Shown here: piece by piece, positions 23,516 to 46,537 of the stretch
Layout: the number at the start of each line of letters is the position of its first letter
Position numbering within the stretch: the stretch's first letter is position 1
Assembly (NCBI GenBank): GCA_964612275.1
Contig: CAZTES010000002.1
Coordinates: forward strand, 1 to 58,943
Origin: an uncultured Rikenellaceae bacterium
GTDB lineage: Bacteria > Bacteroidota > Bacteroidia > Bacteroidales > VadinHA17
DNA length: 58,943 nt
Direction of reading: 5' to 3'
Program-made: the position numbers and the translations under genes
The notes under the pieces: generated by a model
What the model was told of the DNA's origin: nothing
The model's input: only the letters and a program-made list of their open reading frames with translations
Databases searched by the model: none

Positions 23516-26500
23516 CTAATGATTATATAAAATCCTATTTATCAAACAGTTATTTATTGTTTCCACCTTTATCAAATAGACTCCGGGAGAGACTCTGTTT
23601 CCATTTGAAGTAGTTGCATCCCAATTCCATTCATGAACTCCATCGGCCAGGTTTCCTTCAAACAGAACAGAGATGGTTTTGCCTGTCATATCATGAATGG
23701 TAATCCTTATCTCATCCTGTTGTTCCAGGTGGATCTGTATTGTCGTAGAAATATTGAACGGATTAGGATAAATCTGCAGACCAATTTCATTCATTCCTGA
23801 ACGTTCATGTTCCTGAATAGAGAGGGGCGACCAGGATTCGTTGATTGCTCCGGGTGTCCCATGGGTATTTGAATCATACCAGTTTTCAGGCAGGGAATTA
23901 TCCAGGGCAGGATTGATCAGTTCCAGAGTAGGACCTGTTCCATTCGGTTCCGGAGGCCAGGGGGAACTGACTCCGTAGCAGACGGAATCGACCAGGTGAA
24001 GGCTATAGTCATACAGCCTTATGCAATCGCCGTAACTGCTCAGCCCAAAATCGAAATCACCCAAATGATTTGCCACGGATGGGTTCAGCGTGGAAAAAGC
24101 GGTATCATCTCTACAGACCACCAGGTAATCATCTGCCCCGATATGTGCATTCGAAGGAAAGATGAACTGGTGTTCGTCATCCGAATCTTTCACGATCCAA
24201 CCGGTGAGGTCTCTTGCCGTATCACCTCTGTTATAAATCTCGATCCAGTCACCGGTATCAAAATAACCGGGTGAATTATAATTGATCTCATTGATGACGA
24301 TGTATTGCAGTCCACTGCCATCCGGTTCAAAATTTGCCGTGATCTGCTGATCGGTTGAAACATCCAGAATGAGTGGATTTTCGGCGGATTGATAAGATCC
24401 TGTCCAGCCGGTGAAACGGTATCCGGGTTCAGGAACAGGGATTAATGTAACGGGGACATGATCAAAGTATATACCCCTCCATGAGTAACGTTCAGGAAGA
24501 ATGGTATTCAGCTTAATCTTACCTGAACAGGCTGGATTAACACCAAGATCCAGGGCAAATGTTCCATTTAAATTGAATTGATTCCGTATAAAATTCCGGA
24601 GATAATTGACCCTGTTCCGTCCAAAATTGATCATGACCTGGATTTCGTTCTCCCAGTTGCTGTAATCCCCGCCCCATCGGTCCAGGTGATCGTGCATTTC
24701 TGTTTCAATATTCTTTTTCAGTTTCAGGATATGATTCTGCACATTGTCCGGAAGGAAGGTTGTATTGAGGTGATCAGCAAAGCAGTTAATAAAATCTATT
24801 TTGAACCGGCTATTTTCCATTAATTTTCTTAGCAGGAAAGTGGACCAGGGAGGGTTTGGCCATTCCGGTCCGTTGGTTGCAAGGGCATAGGCAAGGGTAT
24901 TGAATGTATATTTAAATGGATTCCAGATACCAAATCCAAAATCTGTATCGAACATGATCCAGCGCCAGCGTCCCGTTTCTGAATGTGGACGCCAGAATTT
25001 GATATTGTTCCCGGGCCAGTCGCGGTTATCAAAATAGATCTGGCTGATCTGATACTTGATGAAATTTTCAGTTTCCATCATCGATTCTACAACGTTCAGG
25101 TTTTGATCCAGCTGCATATTGTTGTTATCGATAAAATTAAGCATGGAAAAATAATGATCAGCGCTTCCGTGTATTTCCCAACCGTTCCCCTCCAGCATAT
25201 CTATACTGTCCGGATGGACACCATGATTTGAAGCGATAAAGTGTTCATTCACTTTTTCACGGATATTCAGGATCCCCCAGTATTCACCGTTCAAGTATAT
25301 TTCGGCCGGCCTATAAGCCTGCAGGTCAATATCCATTCTGTTCACCAAACTGGTCATCATCCCATCCCTCATCATGGAATAGTTCCAGTCATTTCCTGAA
25401 TTTCTAAGAACGATCGCTTCGAACTGATCGATATCTTTTTCATCGAAGATCCTGTAATCGATGTTTCCATAGCCGTATTTGCTCCTGGCAAACAGGGATA
25501 GGGATTTCTGCGGTAAGCCACGACTCCACCCCCCGAATATCTTCATCCCTGCGTCAATTGAGAAGGCTTTATCCCCATCCTGTTCGAACAGCTCGATGTG
25601 GACCGGCCTTTCCCAATCCTGCCAGAAGTTAGCACCAAAATGGGGGAAATCCTGGGAAGCATTGGGTCCCATTACATAGATCCCGTCGTAGTAGTCCCAG
25701 AGGTTTTCAGGGGAGGTGGTCAGGGAAATTACGGGCAATGAGTTCTGGATATTAACCAGGTAGGTGTGGGATACCACCTGTCCCGGAATTTTTCCTTGTT
25801 CCAGGATCCTTGCCCTGATGACAGTTGTTGAGTGTATTGATATTCCATCGGTATATTTCTCCGAAAAGATGGTTGGTTCGCTCCCATCGGTGGTAAAATA
25901 TATGGTATCGTCGGTTTCCTGCCCGGTCAGGTAGAGAATAAATGATGTGGTAAAGAGCCCTCCGGGGGAAGAAAAATAAGGTTCCCCGGCAATTGAAGCG
26001 TACGTTTTTGTCAGGTTGGGTTCTCCAGGAGTAGCATCCTTAAAATAGAACAGGTTTCCAGATCCGTCGGGGTATCTCCCAATGGACAGGTCCGTATACA
26101 TCCGTTCAAAGGCAATGCTGTCAACGATTATCTCCGATGGGTCATACAGAAAAACGGTCTCTCCTTCAGCATCCAGTTTAAAATTCGTATGCAATAATGG
26201 GGAATTTATCTTCAGGATCGGAGGTACCGGGTGATCAGCTCCGGGATTGATGTTTGATCCGACACTCAGGAATGGGATGGCTGTCAGATCTGACGAGCCG
26301 GTGCTGTGGTTATGCACCTGGATGGCAAGCACGTTTTCCCCCTCCCTGATCAGGTTGTGCAGGGAATCGATGCGGAATGATTCCGGCGGTAATCCACGGT
26401 AAATCAGTGCTTCGTGGTTATAATTATTCGCTCCCTGATCGAATGCAGGAGGGATTCCCGGAATGCCTATGTTCCCCCGCGCGATTTCCTCTCCATTCAG

Positions 26501-27091
26501 ATACGCTACAAAACTGTCATCATAATCCATATGGAGAATGGCATCTTTCAGCTGGCTTGTATCATCGACCAGAAATTTTTTTCGGATATAGACAGACATG
26601 GTTATGTCTATCAGTGTTGAGTCATCATTATCTCCGTACCCGAATCCACTTTTTCCTGAATCCCAGTCCTGGTCATTGAAAGCAAGAGTATTCCAATCGG
26701 TTGAGGGTTCCTGGGTTGGAACAAGGTATTTCCATTCATCACCCCTGTTAATGATGGTTTGCCAGTACAGCGGAGGTTCAGTTCTGTTTTTCCCGGAAGC
26801 AAAGACTACAAGAAAATCATCGGGATCCAATATCACTTCCGGGAGTCTCCATTTCGGGAAGGTTGAATCGATATCCGACAGGCCATAATTTGTCAGCTGT
26901 ACCGGATCTGTCCCGCTATTGTACAGTTCAATCCAGTCTGTAAAATCCCCATCCTCATCCAAAATCGTTACCGAATTGGCAGGCATTACTTCATTGATCA
27001 CAATCCCCTGGGCGGATGAACCGGTGGTAAAGGTATACCATATGATCAGAGTCATGATCCAACAAACGCTTTTCCCCTGCTGCAATGCCAT
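23516..27091 (-). CDS. Secreted multidomain CotH-kinase-fold protein with two lamin-tail domains, CHB_HEX_C-like domain and T9SS C-terminal sorting domain
   Basis: 1191 aa with a signal peptide. LTD-like segments are IVINEVMPANS...DWIELYNSG and YIVINEINYNS...DWIEIYNRG. FSSPGGLF...IYFTTDGSEPT resembles a chitobiase C-terminal-like domain. The central region is CotH-like. The tail LQIYPNPFNISTTIQIHL...GVYLIKVE fits a T9SS CTD. Confidence 0.7.
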   Translation of the reverse strand: MALQQGKSVCWIMTLIIWYTFTTGSSAQGIVINEVMPANSVTILDEDGDFTDWIELYNSGTDPVQLTNYGLSDIDSTFPKWRLPEVILDPDDFLVVFASGKNRTEPPLYWQTIINRGDEWKYLVPTQEPSTDWNTLAFNDQDWDSGKSGFGYGDNDDSTLIDITMSVYIRKKFLVDDTSQLKDAILHMDYDDSFVAYLNGEEIARGNIGIPGIPPAFDQGANNYNHEALIYRGLPPESFRIDSLHNLIREGENVLAIQVHNHSTGSSDLTAIPFLSVGSNINPGADHPVPPILKINSPLLHTNFKLDAEGETVFLYDPSEIIVDSIAFERMYTDLSIGRYPDGSGNLFYFKDATPGEPNLTKTYASIAGEPYFSSPGGLFTTSFILYLTGQETDDTIYFTTDGSEPTIFSEKYTDGISIHSTTVIRARILEQGKIPGQVVSHTYLVNIQNSLPVISLTTSPENLWDYYDGIYVMGPNASQDFPHFGANFWQDWERPVHIELFEQDGDKAFSIDAGMKIFGGWSRGLPQKSLSLFARSKYGYGNIDYRIFDEKDIDQFEAIVLRNSGNDWNYSMMRDGMMTSLVNRMDIDLQAYRPAEIYLNGEYWGILNIREKVNEHFIASNHGVHPDSIDMLEGNGWEIHGSADHYFSMLNFIDNNNMQLDQNLNVVESMMETENFIKYQISQIYFDNRDWPGNNIKFWRPHSETGRWRWIMFDTDFGFGIWNPFKYTFNTLAYALATNGPEWPNPPWSTFLLRKLMENSRFKIDFINCFADHLNTTFLPDNVQNHILKLKKNIETEMHDHLDRWGGDYSNWENEIQVMINFGRNRVNYLRNFIRNQFNLNGTFALDLGVNPACSGKIKLNTILPERYSWRGIYFDHVPVTLIPVPEPGYRFTGWTGSYQSAENPLILDVSTDQQITANFEPDGSGLQYIVINEINYNSPGYFDTGDWIEIYNRGDTARDLTGWIVKDSDDEHQFIFPSNAHIGADDYLVVCRDDTAFSTLNPSVANHLGDFDFGLSSYGDCIRLYDYSLHLVDSVCYGVSSPWPPEPNGTGPTLELINPALDNSLPENWYDSNTHGTPGAINESWSPLSIQEHERSGMNEIGLQIYPNPFNISTTIQIHLEQQDEIRITIHDMTGKTISVLFEGNLADGVHEWNWDATTSNGNRVSPGVYLIKVETINNCLINRILYNH

Positions 27092-27116
27092 AACATTGAA
27101 TTTGCCCGGGGTTCGG

Positions 27117-27779
27117 TCAGAGCGAGTTCAAATATTCCACTGCTCCCTGCGGGTCGGGGGAGTAAAAATCCGCCCCGATCTTCCTGCAATAATCGATGGT
27201 CAGGGGAGCGCCCCCGACCAGGATCTTTGTTTCCGGGTATTTTTCTTTTATCTCTTTTACTGCACCTTCCATGTTCACCATGGTGGTGGTAAGCAAGGCG
27301 GACATACCCACGGAAGCACCGTGATGTTTCTCCAGTTGTTCCATGATCCGGTCAACACCAACATCCACACCCAGATCAATCACTTCCCATCCATTTCCCT
27401 CAACCATCATGGCTAACAGGTTTTTTCCGATATCGTGCAGATCTCCCTTAACTGTTCCAACCAAGAATACTCCTTTACGTTTTACATCACCAGCCATAAA
27501 AAAAGGTTTGAGGTGCTCCATGGCAGTCGTCATTGCCTTTGCCGACATCAGCAATTGTGGAACAAACACCTTATTTTCAGCAAACTTTTTACCCACCCGT
27601 TCCATGCCCACTTCAAATGCCTTGGAGAGCAGATCCTGGGGAGGTATTCCTTCCTGCAATGCTTGCACAGTCAGTTCATCCGCTCCATCTTCCCCTTTCA
27701 TCCCGGGGGGATAGGGTGACACTTTATTGATCTTGCCATGTTCCACACAATAGGCTAAACGTTCGATAAGGTTGCTCAT
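27117..27779 (-). CDS. Corrinoid (cobalamin-binding) protein, MtaC/MtbC-like: B12-binding cap + Rossmann B12-binding domain
   Basis: 220 aa. Carries the canonical base-off/His-on signature DxHxxG...SxL...GG, seen as GDLHDIGKN, MSALLTTT and LVGGAP. No signal peptide. Confidence 0.8.
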   Translation of the reverse strand: MSNLIERLAYCVEHGKINKVSPYPPGMKGEDGADELTVQALQEGIPPQDLLSKAFEVGMERVGKKFAENKVFVPQLLMSAKAMTTAMEHLKPFFMAGDVKRKGVFLVGTVKGDLHDIGKNLLAMMVEGNGWEVIDLGVDVGVDRIMEQLEKHHGASVGMSALLTTTMVNMEGAVKEIKEKYPETKILVGGAPLTIDYCRKIGADFYSPDPQGAVEYLNSL

Positions 27780-27935
27780 GATGTGTTGTAGTTTGGTGCT
27801 ATATAAATTTGGTTTCTTACAGAATCAAAAATAGAATTTTATTTCATCTATCTCAAAATATTTTGAACACTGGTTCCGCACCTGCGGAGCGGGGTTTTGT
27901 GTAGTCATTTTTGCGGACCTGTTCAACCGCCCCCA

Positions 27936-28640
27936 ATCTCTTAGGCTCTAAGTCTCCTCCTCTCTTCGTCTCAATGCCTGGTGCTTTTATTCGCCTCCCA
28001 CATGCGTTCACACATACCTGGCTCATGAGACCGCGAATAAATTCGCTAAGTTCGGTCCAGGGAAGGCTTTCCCGAAAAATTACCAGGCAGTTGGGCCGTT
28101 GTATCGGCGTAACCCTGGGCTAAAGACATGTCGCCCCGCTGGGGCTAATTCATTTATCCTAACAAAATACTCCCTTGTCCTCCCTTCTAATTCCCTGCAA
28201 CTTTTAACCTCTGTATGCCGACCAGGCAGGTGTATCTCGTAACTCCTATCTCACTAATCATTTCTTTTCCCAGGACCCAGGACCGAGGACCCAGCAACTA
28301 TTTCTACTCACAACTCACCCTTGTCCGCCGTAGTTTTCTTGACCTCTGTAGTTCTAACGAAAGAGGTAACGAAGGCGGATCTCACTACTCATCTCTTTTC
28401 CCAGTCCCCCCGCCCGAACGACTGTGTCCTTCAGTTGGGCAGGAAGTACCTAATTTGCTGCCTACTGCGTATCCCGAAAAACCATCCCATTGGGAATAGT
28501 TTTTCAAGGAGGACTTAATCAAACCATCTCTCCGTCTCTAGGTCTCTTCGTCTCAAAGTCTCCCCTTCTCATAGTCACAAACTCTCCCCTCTCACAGTCT
28601 CAAAGTCACAACGTCTTCCAATCACCTTCAACCATCATCC
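27936..28640. repeat. Mosaic of pyrimidine-rich word repeats and hairpin modules in an 862-bp non-coding gap
   Basis: tctcttcgtctc occurs at 27961-27972 and 28543-28554. A 26-bp direct repeat atctcacta[a/c]tcat[t/c]tcttttcccag lies at 28248-28273 and 28379-28404. cccaggacccaggaccgaggaccc starts at about 28269. The CT-rich tract 28524-28619 ends in catcatccttcatc. Confidence 0.75.
28324..28379. repeat. CCGCCGTAG...GGCGGATC hairpin module, copy 2 (inner stem covaries with copy at 6515-6569)
   Basis: tccgcc (28324-28329) pairs with ggcgga (28374-28379). The inner stem is acctct (28342-28347) / agaggt (28362-28367). Both copies share the flanks ccgccgtagt.ttctt and acg.aggcggatc. Confidence 0.7.
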
Positions 28641-28641
28641 T

Positions 28642-30957
28642 TCATCGTTCAACCTTCACTTTGTCTCTCCAATACCTTGCTTTCCCCACTCCTGAAACAT
28701 CCGCGCTACCATCAAAAGCCAGTCCAAAATAGCCGGATTGCTGTTCAAACAGCAGCTGTTCTTCGTATAAGGCTTTTGTCAGGTTCACGACCGTAAAACC
28801 AAGGGTGTTTCCCTTTCGTTCGGTATAGAAAAAATCTCCGTTGGTTTCAACCGGTCCATAGCTGATTTTTCCCGATTCATACGTGTATTTAGGTCTACGG
28901 TAATCACGGAACATATCCATACGAAGGTCGTTTTTCACCCCCACATGGATTATCCTATCCCCATTCGTAATTTCAACCGACATGCCTTTCCCAAAGGATT
29001 CGGATCCGATATACCGGATCTGAGCCACCAGGTTTTCCGGTTGTTCTGATTGCGTGTGGGGTATCAGGACGGTGACAAAACCGATGGTTTGTCCCAGTTC
29101 AAAATGTTGTCCTGTTGTTTCCGATATCACCCATTCATCCTGGTAATATCGTTTTTCCATTTCCTTTTGTTCTATCCGGAAATGGGATTTTGGAAAGTGG
29201 ATCAGCAGGCTGGTATTGGTATCAAGTTTCAGGTTGCCGATGGAGTCGTACCGGGTATCGTACCAGTGATTTCCCTGTTTCACTATTTCCCGCGTATGCC
29301 AGAGGTTTGCTGATGTAAAAAACTCCTCAACCCGGGCTTTAACGATATCAAACACAACAAACATTTCCGGATTCTTAATATAGGTAATGACCCTGTCCCA
29401 TTCATAGCCCAGTTTATCATCAATCACCCGGGTTCGGCTGTAGTCAAAATCGGGGAAGGTTAGAAAATCGATTTTCTGGGTTCTGATGATCCGGTATGAT
29501 CCGGCATTATGAAGAAAATCGATTACCGAATGCCCGGGTATTCCCGGGTGATCGGTCGGGCTGTATCTCCATTCTCCCTCTTTCTGTCCCATAAAGATTT
29601 TTTCCTGCCGTACACACATCCGGTTATGGAAGTAGTCCTGACGATAGGCTCCATATGGCCCACTCGGCATAAAATCCCGGTAACCTCCATCGTGCAGCAA
29701 TACGGATCCGTTTTTCATCAGCAGGACGATGCTGTTCTCATCGGCATGTCCATGGGTCATCTTTTCCTCTTCAACGGGGATGACATCTCTCAGGTAATCC
29801 CTGAAAAGCAATCCGCCATCTCCTTCATCCCGGTAGTTCAAAAGCATGTAGGTAGATTCCGGTGACCACCCATTCCGGAAAACGATCTTTTTCCCCTGCA
29901 CATCTTCCATTACCTCTGTACTTAATGTTACCGGTACGCTGGGTTGTATGTCATCCGTACCGTAGCGGTAACAATCGAGCAGCATATAGGCTAAACCTGT
30001 ATTTTCTATCCGGTTGAAATCGATAAATTTCCGTGCGATTACTGAAGCAGCCCATTTCAATTCGGGATTTTTATAGATGTTTGCCGCGGCTTCAAAGTAT
30101 ACCAGGTATCTGTTCCAGTTTGAATGCCAGGTTGCATCGCCGAAATCGGGTATCATTCCGTCAGGAGACATCAGCTGAAGAAAATAGTGGGCATAGTAGT
30201 ACATCTCCGGGGTTTTGAAAAGTTCCTCCACCTGTTCTTTGGCGTCGGCATAACCGAGCAGTGCATAGAGCCACACACCATGATAGATGGTAGCATCTTC
30301 AATCTCCCAGTTTCCCCAGTTATCGAAACCCAGTGCCCGTTCGGTCATTTCCCAGGTTGGTGTTTTAGGATGGTCTGGCACTGCCCTTATTGACCATGCG
30401 AGCGCTTCTGCCCGGAGGGCAGTACGGTTCATGGGTCCCCACTCCTGTGTTTGCAGGAGATAATCCATGCTGTGTGCGATCACCTGATCGATCTTTTCCT
30501 GCTCTTTTTTGGTCAGGTAACCGAGCCGTTTCAGGATTTCATAAGGGCGTGCAAACCGCATGGTGGTAAAAAAATCGGGAAGAGCCGGTACTCCGTTCCC
30601 ATAATCCGGACGTTTTTGCACCGCCTCTTCCGGGTATTCCTTTTTGAAATCATCATAGATCAATAATATCTTTTTAGCTCTCTCGGCATACTCATTCTTC
30701 TTCTCCTTTTCATAGAGGGTGGCATAAATGGTTGCCATCTCCAGAATCCGTCCCGGGGGGCGGTACCCGAAAACACTCAATGGATCGAGTGACTCTCTCC
30801 AGACGGCCATTAGCGAATCCATATTTTCCCATGTCCAGTCAGCCGATTTCCTGGCAAATTCAAGGTATTGGTTCATGGGAATGGGGTTGGTGGATTGAGA
30901 AAAGGATGTGGTTGTGAAAAATAGGATAAACAAGGAAATGAATGTAATTTTCTTCAT
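28642..30957 (-). CDS. Secreted heparinase II/III-like (alpha/alpha-toroid + beta-sandwich polysaccharide-lyase-like) protein
   Basis: 771 aa, signal peptide MKKITFISLFILFFTTTSFSQ. The C-terminal half carries HGHADENSIVLLMKNGSVLLHDGGY, resembling the heparinase II/III domain signature. The family assignment is from motif memory only. Confidence 0.5.
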   Translation of the reverse strand: MKKITFISLFILFFTTTSFSQSTNPIPMNQYLEFARKSADWTWENMDSLMAVWRESLDPLSVFGYRPPGRILEMATIYATLYEKEKKNEYAERAKKILLIYDDFKKEYPEEAVQKRPDYGNGVPALPDFFTTMRFARPYEILKRLGYLTKKEQEKIDQVIAHSMDYLLQTQEWGPMNRTALRAEALAWSIRAVPDHPKTPTWEMTERALGFDNWGNWEIEDATIYHGVWLYALLGYADAKEQVEELFKTPEMYYYAHYFLQLMSPDGMIPDFGDATWHSNWNRYLVYFEAAANIYKNPELKWAASVIARKFIDFNRIENTGLAYMLLDCYRYGTDDIQPSVPVTLSTEVMEDVQGKKIVFRNGWSPESTYMLLNYRDEGDGGLLFRDYLRDVIPVEEEKMTHGHADENSIVLLMKNGSVLLHDGGYRDFMPSGPYGAYRQDYFHNRMCVRQEKIFMGQKEGEWRYSPTDHPGIPGHSVIDFLHNAGSYRIIRTQKIDFLTFPDFDYSRTRVIDDKLGYEWDRVITYIKNPEMFVVFDIVKARVEEFFTSANLWHTREIVKQGNHWYDTRYDSIGNLKLDTNTSLLIHFPKSHFRIEQKEMEKRYYQDEWVISETTGQHFELGQTIGFVTVLIPHTQSEQPENLVAQIRYIGSESFGKGMSVEITNGDRIIHVGVKNDLRMDMFRDYRRPKYTYESGKISYGPVETNGDFFYTERKGNTLGFTVVNLTKALYEEQLLFEQQSGYFGLAFDGSADVSGVGKARYWRDKVKVER

Positions 30958-31129
30958 GGTATTGTTTTTAAATAATTCGTAATTCGGTACTCGGTTACGA
31001 GGCCCGCCCCGTGAAATAATATTTCACTGGGCCCGGGTCGTTGGTCGTAAAACGTCGGTCGTCTTGTTTCCGTTACCGAATAACGAAATCCTAAACGGGT
31101 TTCGTTACCGCCTAACGTAACCGATCTTT

Positions 31130-32047
31130 TCAAAATCTCATCACCCCCAGCTCCCTCAGCGCCAGGTAGGCTGCACCCAGCACTCCTGCTGAATCGCCCA
31201 TCCGGGCTTTCAAAACAGGGATCTCTCCTCTGGGCGGGCCAAAAAAGGAGCGGGTCATAATCAGCGGGACTTTCTCATACCAGATGGGAATATTCGATAC
31301 TCCTCCCCCGAGAATAATCGCTTCCAGGTCGAAAGCATTGACCACGTTGGCAAACACCTGTGCCATGATCTCACAACTCTCCTTGAACAGGTCGACTGCC
31401 AGGGTATCTCCTTTCAGATATAATTCCCAGATCTGCTGAAGGGACTTTTTTTCTCCGCTCACTTCATGATATCTTCTACACTGGCTTGGTCCGGAAAGAT
31501 AGGCTTCAGCACAACCTGACCTTCCACACTCGCACTTCCTTCCCCGGTAATCGATGGTAGTATGCCCTATTTCACCCGCCGCTCCATGTTTACCACGATA
31601 TAGTTTCTGATCCAGGATCAGTCCATATCCCATACCCGTCCCAACAATCACTGCCAGGACATGGGAATAGATTTCCTCATAATTCCCAAAATATTCAGCC
31701 AGGGCAAGGCAATTGGCATCATTTTCCACCACAAGGGGCAGGTTAAATTGTTCCCTAACCCGACGGATAAATCCCGGTGACTCATAAACCGGGGTATGGG
31801 GTGATCCGTGCAACACATCCTCCCCCGGCTCGTGGGTACCCGGTGTACCCATACCAATCGCTTCAACCGGATAATTTTTTGAAACCGCACCAAAAACGAC
31901 TTGAATATTCCGGATCACCTGATCCAATCCTTTTTGGGGCTGAGATAAAACACGATGCCGGGACAGGACCCCGCAGGACGAATCCATCAGGCATGCTTCC
32001 ACTTTCGTACCCCCCAGATCAATGCCAACAACATACTTTTCCACCAT
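31130..32047 (-). CDS. ROK-family sugar kinase
   Basis: 305 aa. N-terminal ATP-binding GIDLGGTKVE and the ROK zinc motif CECGRSGCAEAY. Confidence 0.85.
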   Translation of the reverse strand: MVEKYVVGIDLGGTKVEACLMDSSCGVLSRHRVLSQPQKGLDQVIRNIQVVFGAVSKNYPVEAIGMGTPGTHEPGEDVLHGSPHTPVYESPGFIRRVREQFNLPLVVENDANCLALAEYFGNYEEIYSHVLAVIVGTGMGYGLILDQKLYRGKHGAAGEIGHTTIDYRGRKCECGRSGCAEAYLSGPSQCRRYHEVSGEKKSLQQIWELYLKGDTLAVDLFKESCEIMAQVFANVVNAFDLEAIILGGGVSNIPIWYEKVPLIMTRSFFGPPRGEIPVLKARMGDSAGVLGAAYLALRELGVMRF

Positions 32048-32060
32048 TTTGTTCCGGTAT

Positions 32061-33071
32061 CTATTCTTTTTTCAGCTTATTCCAGGTTTCAAATACCCTC
32101 CAGACATTTTCCGGTTTTGCTCCCGGTCCGAACTCACACTGTGCGATCACTCCTCCCTGTTTATAGAAGAGTTGATAAATTTGATGCACAGCCTTTTCGA
32201 TCTCTTCCTGGCTGTAATCCGGAAGTATGTGCTGACGGTCTATTTCGCCCCAGAATGTTAGTTTCCCACTGAACTTCCTGGCCAACTCTTCGATATCCAT
32301 ACAGAACAACTGCGAATTCAATGCATCAATTCCGACCTCAATGAGATCAGGGATTACCTCACCGATGGCTCCGTCGGAATGCATGAACACATATTTACCA
32401 TAATGCTTTGCGATTTCGATATATTCCTTGTACATCGGCTTGAAATATTTCCTGAAGGTGTCAGGAGAAGTGATCAATCCGTGTTGTGTTCCCCAGTCAT
32501 CCATCAGGTAGATCGCATCTACGGGGGTTTCTGCCCAGGTTTCAACCTCTTTGCAGTAGTGCTGATGGATCACATTCAATAGTTCCTTCAGTCCCGGAGG
32601 TTCCAGCGCAAGATCCATGAATGCCCCTTCCATCGTTCTAATGAATTGAAACCGCTCGAAGGGTCGCTGAAAATTCCCGGCAAGGGTAAACTGGTCCGTG
32701 GATCTGCAAAGCCGCTTGATTTCTTCAACATCAAGATCTAACACAGCTGCAGGAGGTTTAAGATCATGGTATTGCATCGGATCTGCAATGAGTGGTTTCT
32801 GCACTACTCCCATTAATCCCTCATGAATGTTTTTGAACTCACAACCCCATTCATCAACGTAATACCCCAATTTATATTTATTTCCTGAGATCACGGGTGG
32901 TTTTTTATAGTAAACCGGGGTCTGAAGAACATCATCGGGGAATGTTTTTCGCAATCGTCCGGTAAAATCCGGATAATGATCCTCCGCCCATGGAAGGATC
33001 CAGATCTGTCGCGGGATTCGTTCCGGGGAATCAAATTCCAGGGTCTTTTGTACCAGGGTTTTGCGGGTCAT
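32061..33071 (-). CDS. Uroporphyrinogen-decarboxylase (URO-D) fold protein, MtaA/CmuA-like methyltransferase candidate
   Basis: 336 aa, cytoplasmic. The overall TIM-barrel-like pattern and N-terminus (TLEFDSPERIPR...) resemble URO-D family members of the non-HemE type found next to corrinoid proteins. No haem-biosynthesis context. 13 nt upstream of the ROK kinase. Confidence 0.6.
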   Translation of the reverse strand: MTRKTLVQKTLEFDSPERIPRQIWILPWAEDHYPDFTGRLRKTFPDDVLQTPVYYKKPPVISGNKYKLGYYVDEWGCEFKNIHEGLMGVVQKPLIADPMQYHDLKPPAAVLDLDVEEIKRLCRSTDQFTLAGNFQRPFERFQFIRTMEGAFMDLALEPPGLKELLNVIHQHYCKEVETWAETPVDAIYLMDDWGTQHGLITSPDTFRKYFKPMYKEYIEIAKHYGKYVFMHSDGAIGEVIPDLIEVGIDALNSQLFCMDIEELARKFSGKLTFWGEIDRQHILPDYSQEEIEKAVHQIYQLFYKQGGVIAQCEFGPGAKPENVWRVFETWNKLKKE

Positions 33072-33107
33072 GTTGTTAAATCATCATTTAATCCCCCTCC
33101 CCACCTT

Positions 33108-33138
33108 GGCGGGACATCCCCTTTAAACAAAGAGGGAC
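33108..33138. repeat. Dispersed hairpin module, copy 2 (forward orientation)
   Basis: ggcgggacatcccctttaaacaaagagggac matches the reverse complement of 17798-17836 (ggcaggacaccccctttgacaaaggggg). Confidence 0.7.
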
Positions 33139-33174
33139 AAAAGCGTTTATGCATCTCACAGTCGAAAAAATTCT

Positions 33175-34401
33175 TCATCTTTTTCCTCCGGGAAAGTACA
33201 CATAATTCCTTAAATCAATTATTTTACCCGAAGCAGCCCATGGCAGGTTTGCTTCCGAAGGCAACCTGTTTTCCCGGTAACAGGCATATAGTTCCTCACT
33301 GAGACCATCGACCCATAATCGCTCCTTTTTTTCATCCGATGCAATTCTATCCACTGGGAAAGAAGCGATTTCTTCTACAGAATCCTGTACCCCATTAATA
33401 CACAGGACCTGTGCAGTAGCAGCTTCCGGACCACAAATTACCGGTCGGTCTTCTCTTACTGCTCTAATGGCTTCGTGGAGTTTGAGAAACTGGTCATCAT
33501 CCTCCGGGGAACCATTATCTTTCTCCCTCCCCTCCCGTGTAATGGCAATGATCCGGTCCTGTTCATCGCCATAGGTTACCGTTCCACCTTCAAATTCCAG
33601 ATGAAACATCGGGCCTCTTTCACAGGCGGTAACGTGGGATCCATAAAACAGGATTTCCACCCCCCGGGCAGTGTATGCCCTGAACACACCGGTATCGTAA
33701 TTCTGAATGGGATAGGTTCTGTAACATTCACCCTGGATCTCAGCCGGTTGATCACTCTCATCCATTTCCCTGCCGAGCAGGTAGAAGAGGTTATGGATAA
33801 AATGTGCCATCGCGTTTCCCAGGGGACTATCAAGAACCCACCGTTCCTCTTCATCCCTTAACTTGCCGGTCCATTGATTCCTTTCATAATAATCTTTCCC
33901 CCGCGGCCAGAAACAGAGTGATTTCATCCGTTTCGGTTTACCATACAGGCCGGAAAGGATGTCCCTTTTCAACTCCTGGATAGCGTGGGAGTAGGACCAC
34001 TGGTATCCGATCATAACCCATCTGCCCGATTGTTTGCGCACTGATAACAGGTCATCCACGTCCTGTATAACAGCAGATAGTGGTTTATCGCACAAAACAT
34101 TGCTTCCATTCATCAGGGCGATACACGATTGTTCGATGTGATATTGAATGGGAGAGGCAATAACAACCAGATCAGCTCTGCTGCCCGCCAGGTAAAAATC
34201 AGTAATTGTTCTGAAGATCTTTATCTCCCTTTTCTGTATTTCCCGGATTATTCCTGAGTTCCCGGGGAAAGGATCAACCACACCAACGATCTCAATGTCT
34301 TCATCACGGCAGTGATCCAACAGGTTTTTCAGGTAATACATTCCATACCCTCCGATTCCTACCATCAATACGGATACTCTATTTTGTTTCTTGCTGTTCA
34401 T
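33175..34401 (-). CDS. Gfo/Idh/MocA family NAD(P)-dependent oxidoreductase (cytoplasmic)
   Basis: 408 aa. N-terminal Rossmann VSVLMVGIGGYGMYY, then the characteristic C-terminal alpha/beta domain. ATG 34401 directly abuts the TGA (34402-34404) of GH38. Confidence 0.8.
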   Translation of the reverse strand: MNSKKQNRVSVLMVGIGGYGMYYLKNLLDHCRDEDIEIVGVVDPFPGNSGIIREIQKREIKIFRTITDFYLAGSRADLVVIASPIQYHIEQSCIALMNGSNVLCDKPLSAVIQDVDDLLSVRKQSGRWVMIGYQWSYSHAIQELKRDILSGLYGKPKRMKSLCFWPRGKDYYERNQWTGKLRDEEERWVLDSPLGNAMAHFIHNLFYLLGREMDESDQPAEIQGECYRTYPIQNYDTGVFRAYTARGVEILFYGSHVTACERGPMFHLEFEGGTVTYGDEQDRIIAITREGREKDNGSPEDDDQFLKLHEAIRAVREDRPVICGPEAATAQVLCINGVQDSVEEIASFPVDRIASDEKKERLWVDGLSEELYACYRENRLPSEANLPWAASGKIIDLRNYVYFPGGKR

Positions 34402-36906
34402 TCAGGATTGTATCAGTTCACGTTCCAGCAAATCTGTTTCAACAATGGTCTTCGTGCCAGGATCCACTGCTATGGTTTTTATTTCAAACGGTTTTAATGT
34501 TATCGTACCGGAAAAATCCAATACAGGAATTTTGATTTCTATCTTCCTTTCCTGACCGGTCGGCTCAAACAGTCGTATCACCAGCCGCTCGTTTTTTTCA
34601 CTCATTTTCAATGCAGAAAGTTGAACGATTGGATCAGAAATGATCACTCCCTGAAGCAATTTTTCTCCCTTGCCCCTGGAGTAACAGCATAGTGCAGGTG
34701 GAGGTTCGTTCCTGATCAGGCTCTCCCTGTGGATAGATTCTTTCCGCCCGCAGTGATCACCGGCTTGTATCCAGAACCGGAAGGATTGTTCTCCCTGGTC
34801 AATCCTTGGTTCGAACCGGTCCTGGGGCACAATGGGCTGGTCTTTTTTTATCGGATGACCCGAATAGGCAGGGGATCGTAACATGGAAATCCTGAGCTCC
34901 CCTTTATCATAGTCAAATCCATAGGTGGTATCATTGATCACGGTGAGTGCTATTTGCTCTGTCGGCGATTCTAAACCGATCCATTTTTGAGCGACCAGTT
35001 CTTCCCCGGCACGATCAAACTCTTCCACACCACAGGCAACCTGGCCAAAATATTTTGCGTTTTCCCAGCCTGTATCAAAAGCCATTTTCAGCATGCTTTC
35101 TTTCTCCATCCAGTAGATCCTTGATTCCACCTCTATCTCATTTCCTTTCAAAGGTATCTTGTAACGAACTGCAGCAAACGAATCTCCAAACCCGAACAAT
35201 CCTTCAACCACGATCCTTACCGGACCTTCCTCAATGATCCGGAGGGGAGGTAACCGGTTGGCATCCACACCGGCAAAAGCAGCAGCCAATGTAGGTGATA
35301 ACAGTTGAAATTCCCCTTTTATCTTCCGAAAGGACCGAACAGTCATTCCCCATGGATCCGCATTGTCCCTGATCACCAGCAGCCTTCCTGATCCCGGCAG
35401 CAAAATCTGTTTCCCATCAATCTCATAGCGCTGAATCAAACCCGTTGCAGGATTGATCTCTATCTGTCCATTGGGCAGGCTGAAACAAAATCGGTCAGTT
35501 ATTTTTTTCTTTCCCTCTGAAGATCGCGGTATCTTCTTCAGAAAACAGGAAAACCGGTTCATCGATGATGCCTTGAGAAGGGCATGAAAGACAACCCTTT
35601 TTCGGTGATCCTGAACGATGTTGCTGCTCTCTTTCTCAACCTGTGAAGGGATGAGGTTCCCCTCTGCATCCATAACTTCCGGTACCTGCAGGTAATCTTC
35701 ATCGAGGTTGGGTTCCTGCGCCTGGAATTCAATAACCACTGTCCCATCGACATCAAAAGGATGCGGATTAAAGGCCAACAGCGGAAATTCATCCTTTCTT
35801 GTCTCCGGCTGACCGGAAAGGTTTGCCATAAATGCTTTTGAACGGAGGCGTCCCAGGATCTCCATTCCATGGTGCAATCGCTGGATGGCATATTCTTCCA
35901 CTTCCGGGATGGATGATCCGGGGAGGATATCGTGGAACTGGCAATAAAGAAGGTCTTCCAGTGCTTCCGACAGGGATCCTCCGGGGTATCTCACCATTCC
36001 CTGAAGGTGAGTCAGGGTGCACATTTTTTCGGTTAGGAAGTAGAGGTTTTCCAGTTGCCTGTATCTCTTTTTAACCCGTTGCATGGAGGTATAACATCCA
36101 ATAGCAAATGGATTGATGCTCTTTTCCACTCTCGAAAGATCTCTCTTCTCTTCCCGGATTAAATTAAAATACTTTTCCGGAGTTCCATGACAGATGGATC
36201 TCTCTGTTGTCTGTTTCTGTAAGTCAGCGATCTGCTCAAGGTCTTCCCGGGAGGCCCCCCCACCGTGATTACCAATCCCCCAGAGCAGCAGCCCGTTCCG
36301 TCTGCTGCTATTCTGTTTCAGCCATTTCCTGATCTTATCGGCAGCCTGACCCTTGCCAGAGTTATAGTGATCATAGGGGCGGTGAGCTAAAATCTCGGAG
36401 CCATCGTATCCCACCCATATGAAATCAAGATCGGGGAGGTCAAGAAAATGATGATCGGGCCGGCAAAACAGATAAGAAGAGTAACCCGATTTTTTTATTA
36501 TTTGTACCAAACCGCGGGAGTGGCCAAACGGGTCAAAATTTACAGCAGTACTGGGTTCGACCCCAAACCGTTCCATGAAATATTTTTTTCCAACCACGAT
36601 TTGCCGGATCAGTGCTTCCCCGGAGGGCATGTTGCAATCGGGTTGAAGGTACCAGCCCCCGATGATCTTCCAGCTTCCTTCGGTTACCAGCTCCCTGATC
36701 TCCTCAAACAATTCCGGTTCATATTCCTCAACATACTGATAGAGCAGTGCTTCGTTGTGGCAAAAAACAAATCCTTTATATTCCCGGCAAAATCTTGCCG
36801 CAATCCGGAAAGTGGAAAGTGTTTCCGCCATGCCTTCCTCCCACTCCCATAACCAGACGGGGTCCAGGTGGGCGTTGCAAATGAGTGTCAGGGTCTTGTC
36901 GGCCAT
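34402..36906 (-). CDS. Alpha-mannosidase, GH38 (cytoplasmic type)
   Basis: 834 aa, no signal peptide. GH38 N-terminal metal-site motif LICNAHLDPVWLWEW and WGIGNHGGG. Confidence 0.85.
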   Translation of the reverse strand: MADKTLTLICNAHLDPVWLWEWEEGMAETLSTFRIAARFCREYKGFVFCHNEALLYQYVEEYEPELFEEIRELVTEGSWKIIGGWYLQPDCNMPSGEALIRQIVVGKKYFMERFGVEPSTAVNFDPFGHSRGLVQIIKKSGYSSYLFCRPDHHFLDLPDLDFIWVGYDGSEILAHRPYDHYNSGKGQAADKIRKWLKQNSSRRNGLLLWGIGNHGGGASREDLEQIADLQKQTTERSICHGTPEKYFNLIREEKRDLSRVEKSINPFAIGCYTSMQRVKKRYRQLENLYFLTEKMCTLTHLQGMVRYPGGSLSEALEDLLYCQFHDILPGSSIPEVEEYAIQRLHHGMEILGRLRSKAFMANLSGQPETRKDEFPLLAFNPHPFDVDGTVVIEFQAQEPNLDEDYLQVPEVMDAEGNLIPSQVEKESSNIVQDHRKRVVFHALLKASSMNRFSCFLKKIPRSSEGKKKITDRFCFSLPNGQIEINPATGLIQRYEIDGKQILLPGSGRLLVIRDNADPWGMTVRSFRKIKGEFQLLSPTLAAAFAGVDANRLPPLRIIEEGPVRIVVEGLFGFGDSFAAVRYKIPLKGNEIEVESRIYWMEKESMLKMAFDTGWENAKYFGQVACGVEEFDRAGEELVAQKWIGLESPTEQIALTVINDTTYGFDYDKGELRISMLRSPAYSGHPIKKDQPIVPQDRFEPRIDQGEQSFRFWIQAGDHCGRKESIHRESLIRNEPPPALCCYSRGKGEKLLQGVIISDPIVQLSALKMSEKNERLVIRLFEPTGQERKIEIKIPVLDFSGTITLKPFEIKTIAVDPGTKTIVETDLLERELIQS

Positions 36907-37133: not shown

Positions 37134-37928
37134 TCACAAACTCCGGATATTCATGCCTCCGCTCACTTCAAAGATCATTCCGGTGGAATAGTCGAAGTTA
37201 CCTGAAACAATGGCTGCAACGGTTTTCGCGACATCATCCGGATGCCCCCACCGGTCCTGGGGGATTAAACCATCAGCGATCATGCTGTCGTACTTCTCCT
37301 TAACCGGAGCCGTCATATCGGTACGGATGATCCCGGGTCTTATTTCAAAAACACTGATACCCTTTTTTGCAAGTCGATCGGCAAAGAGTTGGCTGGTCAT
37401 ACTCAAACCGGCTTTGGAGATGGAATACTCTCCTCTGTTTACCGAAGACATCACGGCTGAAACGGAGGTGATGAACACAATCCGAGGGAAATAGGGGTCA
37501 ATCTTACCCTGCAATCCGATCATGGTATTGACCACGCGTTGTGTAAAAAAGAGTGGACCGCGAAGGTTTATGCCCATGACCCGGTCGTAACTCTCCGGTG
37601 TTGTCTCAAGCAGATCCATGCGTATCACCGGGGCAACTCCGGCGTTATTTACAAGCAGATCAATCCGGCCAAAATCCTTCATGATGTTTTCAATTACTTC
37701 CAGATGGTTATCAATATCAGCAATATCCAGCGTGTAGGATCTGAAATCCACTCCATGCTCTGCTATGGAGCGTTTAAGCTCGGCATGATTTTTTGCTGAT
37801 TCCGGAGCATGTATTGTCCGGGATATTCCTGCAATAGTATACCCTGCTTCTGCAAGACGTATCGCAGTTGCTTTTCCAATTCCCCGGCTTGCACCGGATA
37901 CAATGGCTACTGGCTGGTTGGTTCCCAT
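37134..37928 (-). CDS. Short-chain dehydrogenase/reductase (SDR)
   Basis: The track start 37937 is TTG; ATG 37928 gives MGTNQPVAIVSGASRGIGKATA (TGxxxGxG-type motif). The active-site region is YSISKAGL. Confidence 0.85.
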   Translation of the reverse strand: MGTNQPVAIVSGASRGIGKATAIRLAEAGYTIAGISRTIHAPESAKNHAELKRSIAEHGVDFRSYTLDIADIDNHLEVIENIMKDFGRIDLLVNNAGVAPVIRMDLLETTPESYDRVMGINLRGPLFFTQRVVNTMIGLQGKIDPYFPRIVFITSVSAVMSSVNRGEYSISKAGLSMTSQLFADRLAKKGISVFEIRPGIIRTDMTAPVKEKYDSMIADGLIPQDRWGHPDDVAKTVAAIVSGNFDYSTGMIFEVSGGMNIRSL

Positions 37929-37933
37929 GGGTT

Positions 37934-39268
37934 TCAATGTTTAATTTTCTTGTATATCGGTTTATATACCTCCTTATCGCGGACCGGACAACCGGTAACA
38001 AGCATATTCCGCATCAGTTCAGTACATTTTGAACAGGAGCTACAGGTTTTTTTCTTTTTGATTTTCCCATATTGCATAAGCTCTTTCGGCGCATCGGGAT
38101 AGGCAAATGAGTTCCGCCCCAATCCAATGAACGTGGCTTTTTTCTGCTGAAGCACAGCTGCAGCCACCTCGGGAAAAAAATGCCTCAACCAGGAGTATCC
38201 GGTGCCGACAAGCCTGGCGTCATGAACCGCCTGTTGTACTCTCCCCACACCATCAATCAACCGGGCAACACCTTCCAGCGGATGTTCATCGGGCAGGTCC
38301 ATTCCCGGTATGGGTTTGTTATAGGGGCGATTGAGGTGGGCATTGATAAAGGGAATTCCCATGGTTCCGTTTATCAGGCAACAACCCGATTGCACCAGCT
38401 GCCGTACCAGTTTTACCGGTTCATCCAGATCCATATCCATCGATCCATCCTGCCCGACTCCGAATCCGTAAGGATGGGGAACTCCATCATACAGGCTGAT
38501 CCGGCTGGAGATATCCAGACTGCTGGTTCCAGTTTGTATCCCACGGATCACCTCCCGGATGAAACGGGTCCTGTTCTCAAAGGATGGTCCGCCATACCGG
38601 CTATTCTCTTTTGTAAATGAGGATAAAAATTCATGCAGCAGGTATCCGTGGCTTGCTTTGATATCTACGCTATCGAAGCCAGCCTTTTCAGCCAGGGTTC
38701 CTGCTTCAATGAATGCCTCCTGAATGGGTTTAAGCTGCTCATCCGTAAGTTCCCTGATCTCTTGTCTGTCCCTGTCTAAATGAGGGTTATAACAAAAAAC
38801 CATGGGTGCAGGCTTACCCTGCGGTTTACTGAACCGTCCGGAGTGGGTGAGTTGGAGCACAATGTACAGGTTGTGTGATCCGCCAAATACCTTATGTGCT
38901 GTTGACCGCATACTCTCAATTAAACGCTGGAATCGTGGCAGGCTCTTTCTGTTGATTGCCAGTTGTCCCGGATTCGACCTGCCCTCTTTCACGACGGCCG
39001 TGGCCTCAAACCAGATCATTCCACTTCCGCCTTCTGCATACCGGTGATACCGCCTGACCGTGAGCTCACCGGGAGAACCATCCGGAATGGCGTCAAATCC
39101 CTCCATAGGGTGTACCACCAGCCTGTTTTGAATCTCTTTTTCACCCAGACAAACCGGTTGAAACAGGGGATCCAGAGTCTCCTGCCAGGGAAGGTTGATC
39201 CCCATTTCCTCCGCCTTCTTCAGCAACTCTTCAGCCGTTTTATACCGGAAAGTTTCGTGTTTTGACAT
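37934..39268 (-). CDS. NADH:flavin oxidoreductase, Old Yellow Enzyme-like TIM barrel with C-terminal Cys-rich tail
   Basis: 444 aa. OYE-like segments VHPMEG, LQLTHSGR and HGYLLHEFLS. The C-terminal tail reads CSSCSKCTELMRNMLVTGCP. Confidence 0.7.
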   Translation of the reverse strand: MSKHETFRYKTAEELLKKAEEMGINLPWQETLDPLFQPVCLGEKEIQNRLVVHPMEGFDAIPDGSPGELTVRRYHRYAEGGSGMIWFEATAVVKEGRSNPGQLAINRKSLPRFQRLIESMRSTAHKVFGGSHNLYIVLQLTHSGRFSKPQGKPAPMVFCYNPHLDRDRQEIRELTDEQLKPIQEAFIEAGTLAEKAGFDSVDIKASHGYLLHEFLSSFTKENSRYGGPSFENRTRFIREVIRGIQTGTSSLDISSRISLYDGVPHPYGFGVGQDGSMDMDLDEPVKLVRQLVQSGCCLINGTMGIPFINAHLNRPYNKPIPGMDLPDEHPLEGVARLIDGVGRVQQAVHDARLVGTGYSWLRHFFPEVAAAVLQQKKATFIGLGRNSFAYPDAPKELMQYGKIKKKKTCSSCSKCTELMRNMLVTGCPVRDKEVYKPIYKKIKH

Positions 39269-39302
39269 CTTATTTTTTCGTTGTTCTACCAGGATTTCAT
39301 CA

Positions 39303-39526
39303 GGTCACACCTACGGAGCTCATGTTGTATAGTAATCCATATGCTAAAGACAGTTCGCTCCGCTGGAGCTAAAAAATTAATCCGGTTAGATTTACAGCTA
39401 TTCAATGCTTAATCTCAATTTGAAAATTCAGATTGCTCACTTATGCTTTTTTTTGCCCCGTCAGGGGCATTCTGTTTTTAGGCACCAAGATTGAAATATG
39501 ATCAGAGCTCCGTAGGAGCGGCCTGT
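39303..39526. repeat. MITE-like unit, left copy (5' terminus degenerate)
   Basis: Shares long blocks with 40023-40248: tcgctccgctggagct, aatccggttagatttacag, aatttgaaaattcagattgctcacttatgcttttttt, gccccgtcaggggcattctgt and agctcc.taggagcggcctgt. Internal triloop hairpins are gctcc gct ggagc (39357-39369) and gcccc gtca ggggc (39455-39468). Confidence 0.85.
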
Positions 39527-39531
39527 TTTTT

Positions 39532-39987: not shown

Positions 39988-40022
39988 GATTAGCACTTAA
40001 TTATTATGTTTAAATTCTTTTC

Positions 40023-40248
40023 ACAGGCCGCTCCTACGGAGCTTATTTTCTTTTCCAACTACTTTTCTAAAGACTGGTCGCTCCGCTGGAGCTGAAAACC
40101 CAATCCGGTTAGATTTACAGATGTTCAATGCTTTATCTTAATTTGAAAATTCAGATTGCTCACTTATGCTTTTTTTGCCCCGTCAGGGGCATTCTGTCTT
40201 TAGATACATGATCCATCCTAAAGATGGAGCTCCATAGGAGCGGCCTGT
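40023..40248. repeat. MITE-like unit, right copy with intact 20-nt terminal inverted repeats
   Basis: The 5' end is acaggccgctcctacggagc (40023-40042). The 3' end is gctccataggagcggcctgt (40229-40248), its reverse complement with 1 mismatch. Each terminus contains a gctcc-NNN-ggagc hairpin. Confidence 0.85.
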
Positions 40249-40258
40249 TACTCTAAAT

Positions 40259-41236: not shown

Positions 41237-41284
41237 TTTAATAAAGCATTTAGTAAGCAGGAAATCAAAACCGTCAAACCGTTA

Positions 41285-43633: not shown

Positions 43634-43644
43634 ACATTTATATT

Positions 43645-46510: not shown

Positions 46511-46537
46511 ATATGAATACAATAATAACCATTTTAT

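Follow-up and report, generated by a model that had tools for sequence, protein, structure and literature searches.

Organization of the locus

The stretch of DNA analysed here (the window) comprises 58,943 nt from an uncultured Rikenellaceae bacterium (GCA_964612275.1, contig CAZTES010000002.1, positions 1-58,943, forward) and is 84-88% identical at the DNA level to an uncultured Rikenellaceae metagenome-assembled genome (MAG). This identity speaks for a Rikenellaceae-like member of the Bacteroidales, and the T9SS domain of the CotH protein for Bacteroidota. The window contains exactly one URO-D-family gene and one gene for a corrinoid (B12-binding) protein, which an initial annotation had proposed as a cobalamin-dependent module for the O-demethylation of sugars. 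Every gene of the reported region (Table 1) lies on the minus strand, and transcription runs from high to low coordinates. From 5' to 3', the array begins with a class V pyridoxal-phosphate (PLP) enzyme, an unassigned 782-aa protein, a xylose-isomerase-like TIM barrel, an IS200 transposase, an OYE, an SDR and a GH38 enzyme. It continues with a GFO oxidoreductase, the URO-D protein, a ROK kinase, a 771-aa protein, a non-coding gap, the corrinoid protein, a CotH/LTD-T9SS protein, an SSF transporter and a HIBADH-like reductase.

Only 13 nt lie between the end of the URO-D gene and the ROK kinase gene, and 4281 nt separate the URO-D gene from the corrinoid gene, in agreement with the initial annotation. 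The GH38, GFO, URO-D, ROK and corrinoid proteins have no signal peptide; the 771-aa protein has one. The same annotation had placed a cytoplasmic GH38 just upstream of the URO-D gene. This enzyme is indeed upstream and without a signal peptide, but the GFO gene lies between the two. A homologue search of the window confirms that no activase, methyl-tetrahydrofolate methyltransferase or second methyltransferase is encoded in it; pterin-binding and homocysteine methyltransferases, MetH-activation-like proteins, RACo and CobW homologues are all missing from the window.

Table 1 Features of the reported region of the window
Feature	Position	Strand	Basis and remarks
CotH-kinase-like protein, 1191 aa, with lamin-tail domains and T9SS C-terminal sorting domain	23516-27091	-	
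Corrinoid (B12-binding) protein, 220 aa	27117-27779	-	PF02607 and PF02310; proposed methyl carrier
Non-coding gap, 860 nt	27780-28641	.	separates corrinoid gene from the rest of the array
Secreted 771-aa polysaccharide-lyase-fold protein	28642-30957	-	signal peptide; AF2 and Foldseek
ROK-family hexose kinase	31130-32047	-	PF00480, 229 bits; below all NCBIfam equivalog cut-offs
URO-D-fold protein, 336 aa	32061-33071	-	PF01208; proposed metal-dependent methyl-substrate:corrinoid methyltransferase
GFO/IDH/MocA NAD(P) oxidoreductase	33175-34401	-	PF01408; between GH38 and URO-D
GH38 alpha-mannosidase-family enzyme, cytoplasmic	34402-36906	-	PF01074, PF09261, PF07748; without signal peptide
Accessory genes (SDR, OYE, TIM barrel, unassigned 782-aa and 534-aa proteins, class V PLP enzyme, 701-aa SSF transporter)	37134-48643	-	Pfam
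IS200-type Y1 transposase	39532-39996		PF01797; between TIM-barrel and OYE genes

The corrinoid protein and its relatives

The corrinoid protein consists of a helical cap and a Rossmann domain, matched by PF02310 (86.8 bits) and PF02607 (64.5 bits). Its translation contains the motifs GDLHDIGKN (residues 112-120), MSALLTTT (159-166) and LVGGAP (187-192), and the DxHxxG, SxL and GG positions are invariant in an alignment of 20 sequences, so that the cap architecture and cobalamin-binding signature described initially are upheld. The best solved relative is 1y80 (158 bits). The score on TIGR02370 (166.9 bits) falls under the cut-off of 215.3, and those on the MtgC, MtbC and MtaC equivalogs fall far under theirs. 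The protein belongs to a Bacteroidota-type subfamily carrying the N-terminal insert CVEFGKINKxSPYPP.

The family was sampled in 48 metagenome loci with homologues 54-68% identical to the window protein (loci here carry our own L numbers). Within 300 nt of the corrinoid gene, pterin-binding methyltransferases are found in 11 loci, URO-D-family methyltransferases in 11 and homocysteine methyltransferases in five. MetH-activation-like genes lie within 3 kb in 16 of the 48, RACo and CobW occur now and then, and reactivation modules adjoin homologous corrinoid genes in L008, L102 and L116. These neighbours therefore identify the family as the methyl carrier of modular methyl-transfer systems. The window gene is unusual only in the absence of a catalytic partner directly beside it, and the URO-D gene 4.3 kb upstream is the sole candidate in the window.

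Some of the related operons combine the same components differently. Six metagenome contigs (L090, L131, L152, L121, L125 and L130) carry operons of URO-D, corrinoid protein and homocysteine S-methyltransferase, sometimes with a MetH-activation-like gene. Judged from their gene content, these operons look like MetH with the folate module exchanged for a URO-D protein, and may make methionine from another methyl donor. Several operons of the corrinoid family lie inside glycan loci, and a GH29 fucosidase gene directly precedes that of L090. Two Bacteroidota clusters (L008, 8001-13542; L009, 5685-11452) contain a LacI/GntR regulator, a corrinoid protein, a URO-D protein of 452-539 aa with a fused thioredoxin-like domain, and CobW. 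The L008 cluster additionally has a Met_synt_B12-like gene and RACo further along, and a hybrid two-component regulator, GH130, SASA and GH28 surround that of L009.

Placement and candidate metal site of the URO-D-fold protein

The 336-aa protein matches PF01208 (73.2 bits, E = 2.6e-20), as expected from the initial annotation. The best Foldseek match of its AlphaFold2 (AF2) model (pLDDT 94) is M. mazei MtaA (4ay7/4ay8, TM 0.70-0.71). The fold alone cannot choose between MtaA and HemE, because HemE structures rank close behind. At the sequence level, a phmmer search against the PDB gives only 1j93 (E = 0.41), and the family profile gives only chance matches there. The MtaA/CmuA-type NCBIfam models TIGR01463 and PRK06252 score 33.0 and 35.9 bits, with cut-offs of 235 and 244.

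Identity as HemE is rejected on several grounds. No HemE NCBIfam model matches at E<=0.01, alignment with E. coli HemE shows that the protein lacks the N-terminal PxWxMRQAGRY motif, and the family profile gives E. coli HemE only 3.6 bits. The gene context is not that of tetrapyrrole synthesis either: in the window and in 80 loci built around homologues, the gene is surrounded by GFO, GH38, ROK, lyase-fold and transporter genes.

The same profile scores MtaA at 9 bits and reaches 71-97 bits with paralogues that adjoin corrinoid genes and sit in operons of the types corrinoid protein-URO-D, URO-D-corrinoid protein-homocysteine methyltransferase and corrinoid protein-pterin methyltransferase-URO-D. 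A neighbour-joining tree likewise places the window family beside these corrinoid-operon paralogues. By profile and tree, then, the protein is assigned to the methyltransferase side of the superfamily and not to HemE; clustering with HemE, which the initial annotation had named as the outcome that would speak against its proposal, does not occur.

Alignment through the corrinoid-adjacent paralogues sets the zinc motif of MtaA, VLHICGN...APGCG, against FMH231-S-D233-GA...IAQC312-E-FG. Of the zinc-ligand positions of MtaA, His231 and the distal Cys312 are kept, and the proximal Cys is Asp233. His231, Asp233 and Cys312 are invariant in 28 homologues, and the H-x-D variant also occurs in paralogues directly flanking corrinoid genes (L136, L152). 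A metal site formed by these residues is plausible.

Distribution and carbohydrate context of the URO-D family

The URO-D family is tight and highly conserved: identities are 50-88% among members from Bacteroidota, Aminicenantes/Acidobacteriota, Chloroflexota, Bacillota, Latescibacterota, Planctomycetota and others, and at least 589 GTDB species carry it. Among 1.84 billion cluster representatives, a profile search yields 565 proteins (50%-identity clusters) at E<=1e-30. Gene context was compared in 80 URO-D-anchored loci from species-representative genomes (1.20 Mb in total), with only those loci that have enough flank serving as denominator for the counts of the main partners. The high-GC locus L159, where gene calling picked open reading frames on the wrong strand, was left out of interpretation.

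Directly upstream of the URO-D gene, a GFO oxidoreductase is encoded in 55 of 70 loci, and in the Aminicenantes genome CP070825 (L001) the two genes overlap by 1 nt. This most conserved of the partners had not been singled out in the initial annotation. GH38 lies upstream of the GFO-URO-D pair in 41 of 60 loci, the lyase-fold 771-aa protein or the unrelated 782-aa protein follows within 3.5 kb downstream in 33 of 57, and the ROK kinase is directly downstream in 14 of 70. Accessory genes recur within 10 kb as well: SDR in 35 of the 80 loci, OYE in 16, the TIM barrel in 11 and the 701-aa SSF transporter (SSF701) in eight. Across phyla, the URO-D family is almost always found within loci for carbohydrate uptake and catabolism.

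In the cultured Robinsoniella peoriensis, a further URO-D paralogue, a GH106-like protein, a sugar ABC transporter and an AraC regulator are encoded around the URO-D gene. Operons of the sister clade contain LacI regulators and monosaccharide-type ABC transporters. More distant family members adjoin lyase-type proteins, a sulfatase and a fucosidase.

Linkage of the URO-D and corrinoid genes

The initial annotation had called for a test of co-occurrence among the two genes and carbohydrate-active enzymes. The carbohydrate genes are conserved around URO-D, as described above, but only seven of the 80 loci have a corrinoid gene at a distance of up to 10 kb, and in four it is no more than 300 nt away. 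Assuming about one such gene per Mb (our estimate), chance would give about one match in 1.2 Mb. The excess over this is modest and comes from loci that are not mutually independent; how the genes are linked says more than how often.

In four MAGs (L075, L077, L086, L087) and one metagenome contig (L154), the corrinoid gene is immediately upstream of URO-D on the same strand, from a 4-nt overlap (L077) to a gap of about 40 nt. The full-length URO-D genes of the four MAGs retain all invariant residues, and a block of TIM-barrel, OYE, FAD_binding_2 and SDR genes stands beside the pair in L077, L087 and L154. A Caldilineaceae MAG (L083; JAGNDO010000016, 4373-15180) contains a packed operon in which a GntR/LacI-type sugar regulator and a sugar ABC transporter are combined with five URO-D paralogues, one of them of the window type, and with a corrinoid protein; its composition suggests a multi-substrate methyltransferase array fed by the sugar transporter.

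The closest association is found in P0361, a 592-aa protein and the top match among the 1.84 billion representatives. It joins a corrinoid protein, a linker of about 45 residues and a window-type URO-D domain. Since the open reading frame is unbroken and contains no start codon ahead of the conserved URO-D N-terminus, the fusion is likely genuine. Its contig (L173) continues with orthologues of the window SSF701 (62% identity), PLP enzyme and lyase-fold protein; a member of the ZIP transporter family (PF02535) and a GHMP kinase come next. Adjacent and overlapping genes, a shared operon and this apparent fusion in other lineages support a functional tie between the URO-D homologue and a corrinoid protein.

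Within the lineage of the window, the two genes remain in one locus through rearrangements. Their order in L010 and L011 is as in the window. In the rearranged locus of Bacteroidales CP070687 (L007/L171), the URO-D and ROK genes are about 14 kb from the corrinoid gene. The URO-D gene there (L171, 10001-10917) is 5'-truncated (304 aa, annotated as partial); GH38 and GFO are gone, and the ROK, accessory and corrinoid genes are retained. These changes point to decay or ongoing rearrangement of the module in CP070687.

Synteny by itself would also place the two genes together if the corrinoid protein supplied the B12 subunit to a methyl-transfer system, split MetH-like or other, whose catalytic subunits are encoded elsewhere, and if the URO-D protein, in case it is a methyltransferase, used another corrinoid protein. 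Split methionine synthases are an established kind of enzyme. The 54-68%-identical homologues with their pterin-binding (11 of 48), homocysteine methyltransferase (five) and MetH-activation-like neighbours (16 within 3 kb) fit such a role, as does the corrinoid gene of L003/L004 (65% identical), which lies in an opposite-strand operon with S-methyl_trans and Met_synt_B12. The position of the window gene beyond the 860-nt gap, with CotH next to it, points the same way. Against this, URO-D is the only methyltransferase-like gene near the window corrinoid gene, and both genes stay co-located in L010, L011 and L007/L171 despite the rearrangements. Many split-MetH-like operons, moreover, carry URO-D in place of the pterin domain (L090, L131, L152), so a split system and a demethylating pair are compatible, with methyl passing from a donor to homocysteine. 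A separate system of which URO-D is not part is regarded as very unlikely.

Proposed demethylation of methylated sugars

O-Methyl sugars include 6-O-methyl-galactose in porphyran, 2-O-methyl-fucose and 2-O-methyl-xylose in rhamnogalacturonan II, 4-O-methyl-glucuronate in xylans, and methyl-mannoses in algal and microbial glycans. Their O-methyl groups block glycolytic processing. For the window, we see about an even chance that the URO-D and corrinoid proteins form a metal-dependent methyl-sugar:corrinoid methyltransferase system acting without oxygen, in which the corrinoid protein of the window would be the likely partner of the URO-D enzyme. The wider proposal, that the widespread His/Asp/Cys URO-D family and corrinoid proteins carry out cobalamin-dependent O-demethylation of methylated sugars, is advanced tentatively, as a serious possibility; here GFO would prime the ether for Co(I), and the methyl group would be kept in the methionine/folate pool and not lost as formaldehyde.

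In the proposed pathway, the secreted lyase-fold enzyme would trim an acidic, mannose-containing glycan outside the cytoplasm, the SSF transporter would bring the fragments in, and the cytoplasmic GH38 would free a methylated hexose. Within the cell, the URO-D enzyme is hypothesized to move the methyl group from the O-methylated sugar, or from a small oligosaccharide, to the Co(I) corrinoid protein. GFO may first oxidize the carbon neighbouring the methoxy group. We infer that such an oxidation would make the leaving oxygen enolate- or phenolate-like, and thereby render the alkyl ether tractable for Co(I). The ROK kinase would phosphorylate the demethylated hexose. The methyl-Co(III) protein would be unloaded by a methyltransferase encoded elsewhere, which in related operons is of the homocysteine or the pterin type, with homocysteine or tetrahydrofolate, judging from the related operons, as the probable acceptor.

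The demethylating pair put forward initially thus gains from the methyltransferase-side placement, from the corrinoid tie in other lineages and from carbohydrate loci across phyla, but the corrinoid gene of the window is not beside a methyltransferase gene. Several further observations weigh against the proposal. The corrinoid gene, of a family that normally has a methyltransferase directly adjacent, is 4.3 kb away, behind the 860-nt gap that separates it from h771 (the gene of the 771-aa protein), and is followed by the unrelated CotH/T9SS gene. In about 90% of the 80 loci, a corrinoid gene is missing within 10 kb of URO-D, and the distant family members L174 and L175 have carbohydrate neighbours and no corrinoid gene; the linkage does not grow with distance. 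The fusion is known from one contig, where a lost stop codon is possible. The scores of the URO-D protein on the MtaA/CmuA models are far under the cut-offs, and the canonical proximal Cys ligand (His-x-Cys...Cys) is substituted by Asp. The tightest conserved partner, GFO, has no necessary role in corrinoid chemistry. Neither the window nor any of the 80 loci contains a second methyltransferase, a RACo/RamA activase or a MetH-activation-like gene, so the complete system never occurs in one place. We know of no precedent for Co(I) cleavage of an alkyl (sugar) methyl ether.

Part of this evidence would fit a URO-D protein that is not a methyltransferase but, together with GFO, converts a keto-sugar (a metal-dependent decarboxylase, lyase, hydratase or isomerase, for example), while the window corrinoid gene serves another process. 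GFO-URO-D is by far the most conserved pair, and the scarcity of corrinoid genes, the missing second methyltransferase and activase, the altered H-x-C motif and the lyase-type, sulfatase and fucosidase neighbours of distant members all agree with it. HemE, the founding member of the URO-D fold, is itself a cofactor-free decarboxylase. Such an activity does not readily account for the apparent fusion in a matching gene neighbourhood, for adjacent and overlapping gene pairs that retain all invariant residues, or for a single operon with five URO-D paralogues and a corrinoid protein. In addition, the nearest paralogues are all corrinoid-linked, and two of the three metal-ligand positions of MtaA are kept. 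This explanation is considered unlikely.

The donor, in turn, could be other than a sugar ether. The module could be a corrinoid methyltransferase system acting, like the classical aryl O-demethylases, on the methoxylated aromatic aglycone of a plant glycoside, or on an N- or S-methyl group of a sugar derivative, with the GFO, TIM-barrel, OYE and flavoprotein genes processing the glycoside or the aglycone. The corrinoid linkage fits this equally well. To our knowledge, the characterized URO-D-family O-demethylases all act on aryl methyl ethers, and the recurrent GFO, xylose-isomerase-like TIM barrel, OYE and FAD_binding_2 presumably resemble keto-glycoside/ene-reductase chemistry on plant glycosides. 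OdmB and VdmB, for instance, are phenolic O-demethylases of the UroD superfamily (PMC10418091). The hexose kinase 13 nt downstream of URO-D argues for a sugar substrate instead, as do the GH38, the polysaccharide-lyase-fold protein and the SSF sugar-type transporters of the cluster. The sister-clade operons have monosaccharide-type ABC transporters and LacI regulators, and aromatic-ring catabolic genes are seen in no locus. An aglycone, or an N- or S-methyl group, is held to be a distinctly unlikely donor.

Should the demethylation of sugars by this family be borne out, corrinoid methyl-transfer chemistry would reach carbohydrate ethers, beyond aryl ethers, methylamines and methanol. Glycan degradation would be tied to B12 availability, and a route would lead from polysaccharide methyl groups to methionine or C1 metabolism. 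This widely distributed enzyme family makes the handling of methylated sugars by anaerobes in guts, sediments and digesters directly testable: candidate metal-ligand residues are at hand, the apparent natural fusion could be expressed as a single polypeptide, and Robinsoniella peoriensis is a cultured carrier.

Comparison with known methyl-transfer systems

The aryl O-demethylases of acetogens and Desulfitobacterium, which comprise methyltransferase I, a corrinoid protein, methyltransferase II and an activase, share with the window system a URO-D-fold methyltransferase, a cap-plus-Rossmann corrinoid protein and, as proposed here, the O2-free demethylation of a catabolic substrate. Related Bacteroidota operons also join the corrinoid family with pterin-type methyltransferases and RACo. 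The window system differs in its carbohydrate context and in its distinct methyltransferase family with a His/Asp/Cys site. It has no methyltransferase II or activase in the locus, GFO is its most conserved partner, and an alkyl ether would be chemically a harder substrate than an aryl ether.

Of the methylcobamide:coenzyme M methyltransferases MtaA, MtbA and MtsA of methanogens, MtaA provides the best structural match (4ay7, TM 0.70) and the zinc-site His and distal Cys that align with the window protein; like mtaA, most members of the URO-D family are not linked to a corrinoid gene of their own. Identity to MtaA is only about 15%, with the low profile score and the Cys-to-Asp change described above, and the family occurs in bacterial hosts and glycan loci without coenzyme M context. 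Split cobalamin-dependent methionine synthases resemble the window system in that the corrinoid family often lies beside PF02574, PF02965-like and pterin-binding genes. Those modules are absent from the window, and URO-D stands in for the pterin module in several relatives.

The mlp clusters of Kountz and Balskus (PMC10418091) likewise combine URO-D-superfamily methyltransferase homologues of non-methanogens with a corrinoid protein and no tetrahydrofolate methylase. They are mostly from Firmicutes and contain two or three Mlps and a Ram/RACE activase, and the substrates proposed for these MtaA-like proteins are methyl-sulfur or methyl-selenium compounds (PMC10418091). The text of that paper has no mention of Bacteroid*, sugar or carbohydrate.

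The P450 6-O-methyl-D-galactose demethylase of marine Bacteroidota (PMC6292453, PMC9400963) removes a sugar O-methyl group and thereby enables catabolism, as proposed here, and is likewise encoded in polysaccharide-degrading loci. Its reaction is oxidative, depends on O2 and releases formaldehyde, and its fold and cofactor are unrelated to those of the window pair. In the literature searched, this O2-dependent P450 is the sole characterized sugar demethylase (PMC6292453). In the full-text search, neither a corrinoid-dependent demethylation of sugars nor this gene cluster was described in any paper, and the matches pairing corrinoid proteins with polysaccharide utilization loci proved irrelevant. 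The class of chemistry is already known; the enzyme family, the ligand set, the GFO partner and the carbohydrate setting would be new.

Non-coding gap and neighbouring genes

In agreement with the initial annotation, neither a cobalamin riboswitch nor any other RNA family of Rfam is detected, whether in the whole window at gathering thresholds or in a permissive scan of 27000-34000. The non-coding gap before the corrinoid gene carries degenerate repeats of 8-nt period (GAGACnnA-like, minus strand) at both ends (27938-27979 and 28528-28585) and an internal duplication of about 131-146 nt. Its centre (28051-28401, 351 nt) is 95.7% identical to the MAG locus L010, where the flanking genes are 84-88% identical. 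This conserved segment gives an RNA-folding z-score of +1.6, which is no signal, and has no second copy. A remnant of an M61 peptidase, considered by comparison with the relative L007, was rejected, as tblastn yields no match. A promoter-like sequence at 27856-27828 on the minus strand is a consensus match only.

The CotH/T9SS gene begins 26 nt past the corrinoid gene, as in L010 and L011. In L007, a NUDIX/AraR-type regulator and not the CotH gene follows the corrinoid gene.

The 771-aa protein had been annotated as secreted and heparinase II/III-like. Its signal peptide is present, and its AF2 model (pLDDT 77.5) consists of an N-terminal alpha-helical toroid followed by a C-terminal beta-sandwich. 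The best Foldseek match is the alginate lyase Dp0100 (6jp4, E = 6.5e-18), within a set of HepC, heparinase II/III and PL17 lyases (6jp4, 4mmi, 5jmf, 4nei, 2fut) with E-values from 1e-18 to 1e-12 and TM 0.46-0.57. The protein has no Pfam match, the HepC NCBIfam model gives 20 bits, and a phmmer search of the PDB is empty; the heparinase label is true for the fold only, because the fold matches and no Pfam family does.

No above-cut-off NCBIfam score on the accessory genes identifies a substrate. The close relative L010 has no IS200 insertion at the corresponding site. By NCBIfam, the class V PLP enzyme (43645-44940) is SufS-like or PvdN-like; its signal-like N-terminal sequence (MNRNQFLTTLGTLTGGTLLARPALA) points to a periplasmic location, within a glycan locus.

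The flanks of the window (1-20500 and 50400-58300) encode, on one side, an L-arabinose set of araA, an araD-like aldolase, an FGGY kinase, a GH51-like protein and two GH127 proteins. On the other side lie a KDPG aldolase, a DUF6807 protein, a TAT-signal GFO oxidoreductase, an Oxidoreduct_C protein and ThuA. With these flanks, the window constitutes a dense carbohydrate-catabolic region.

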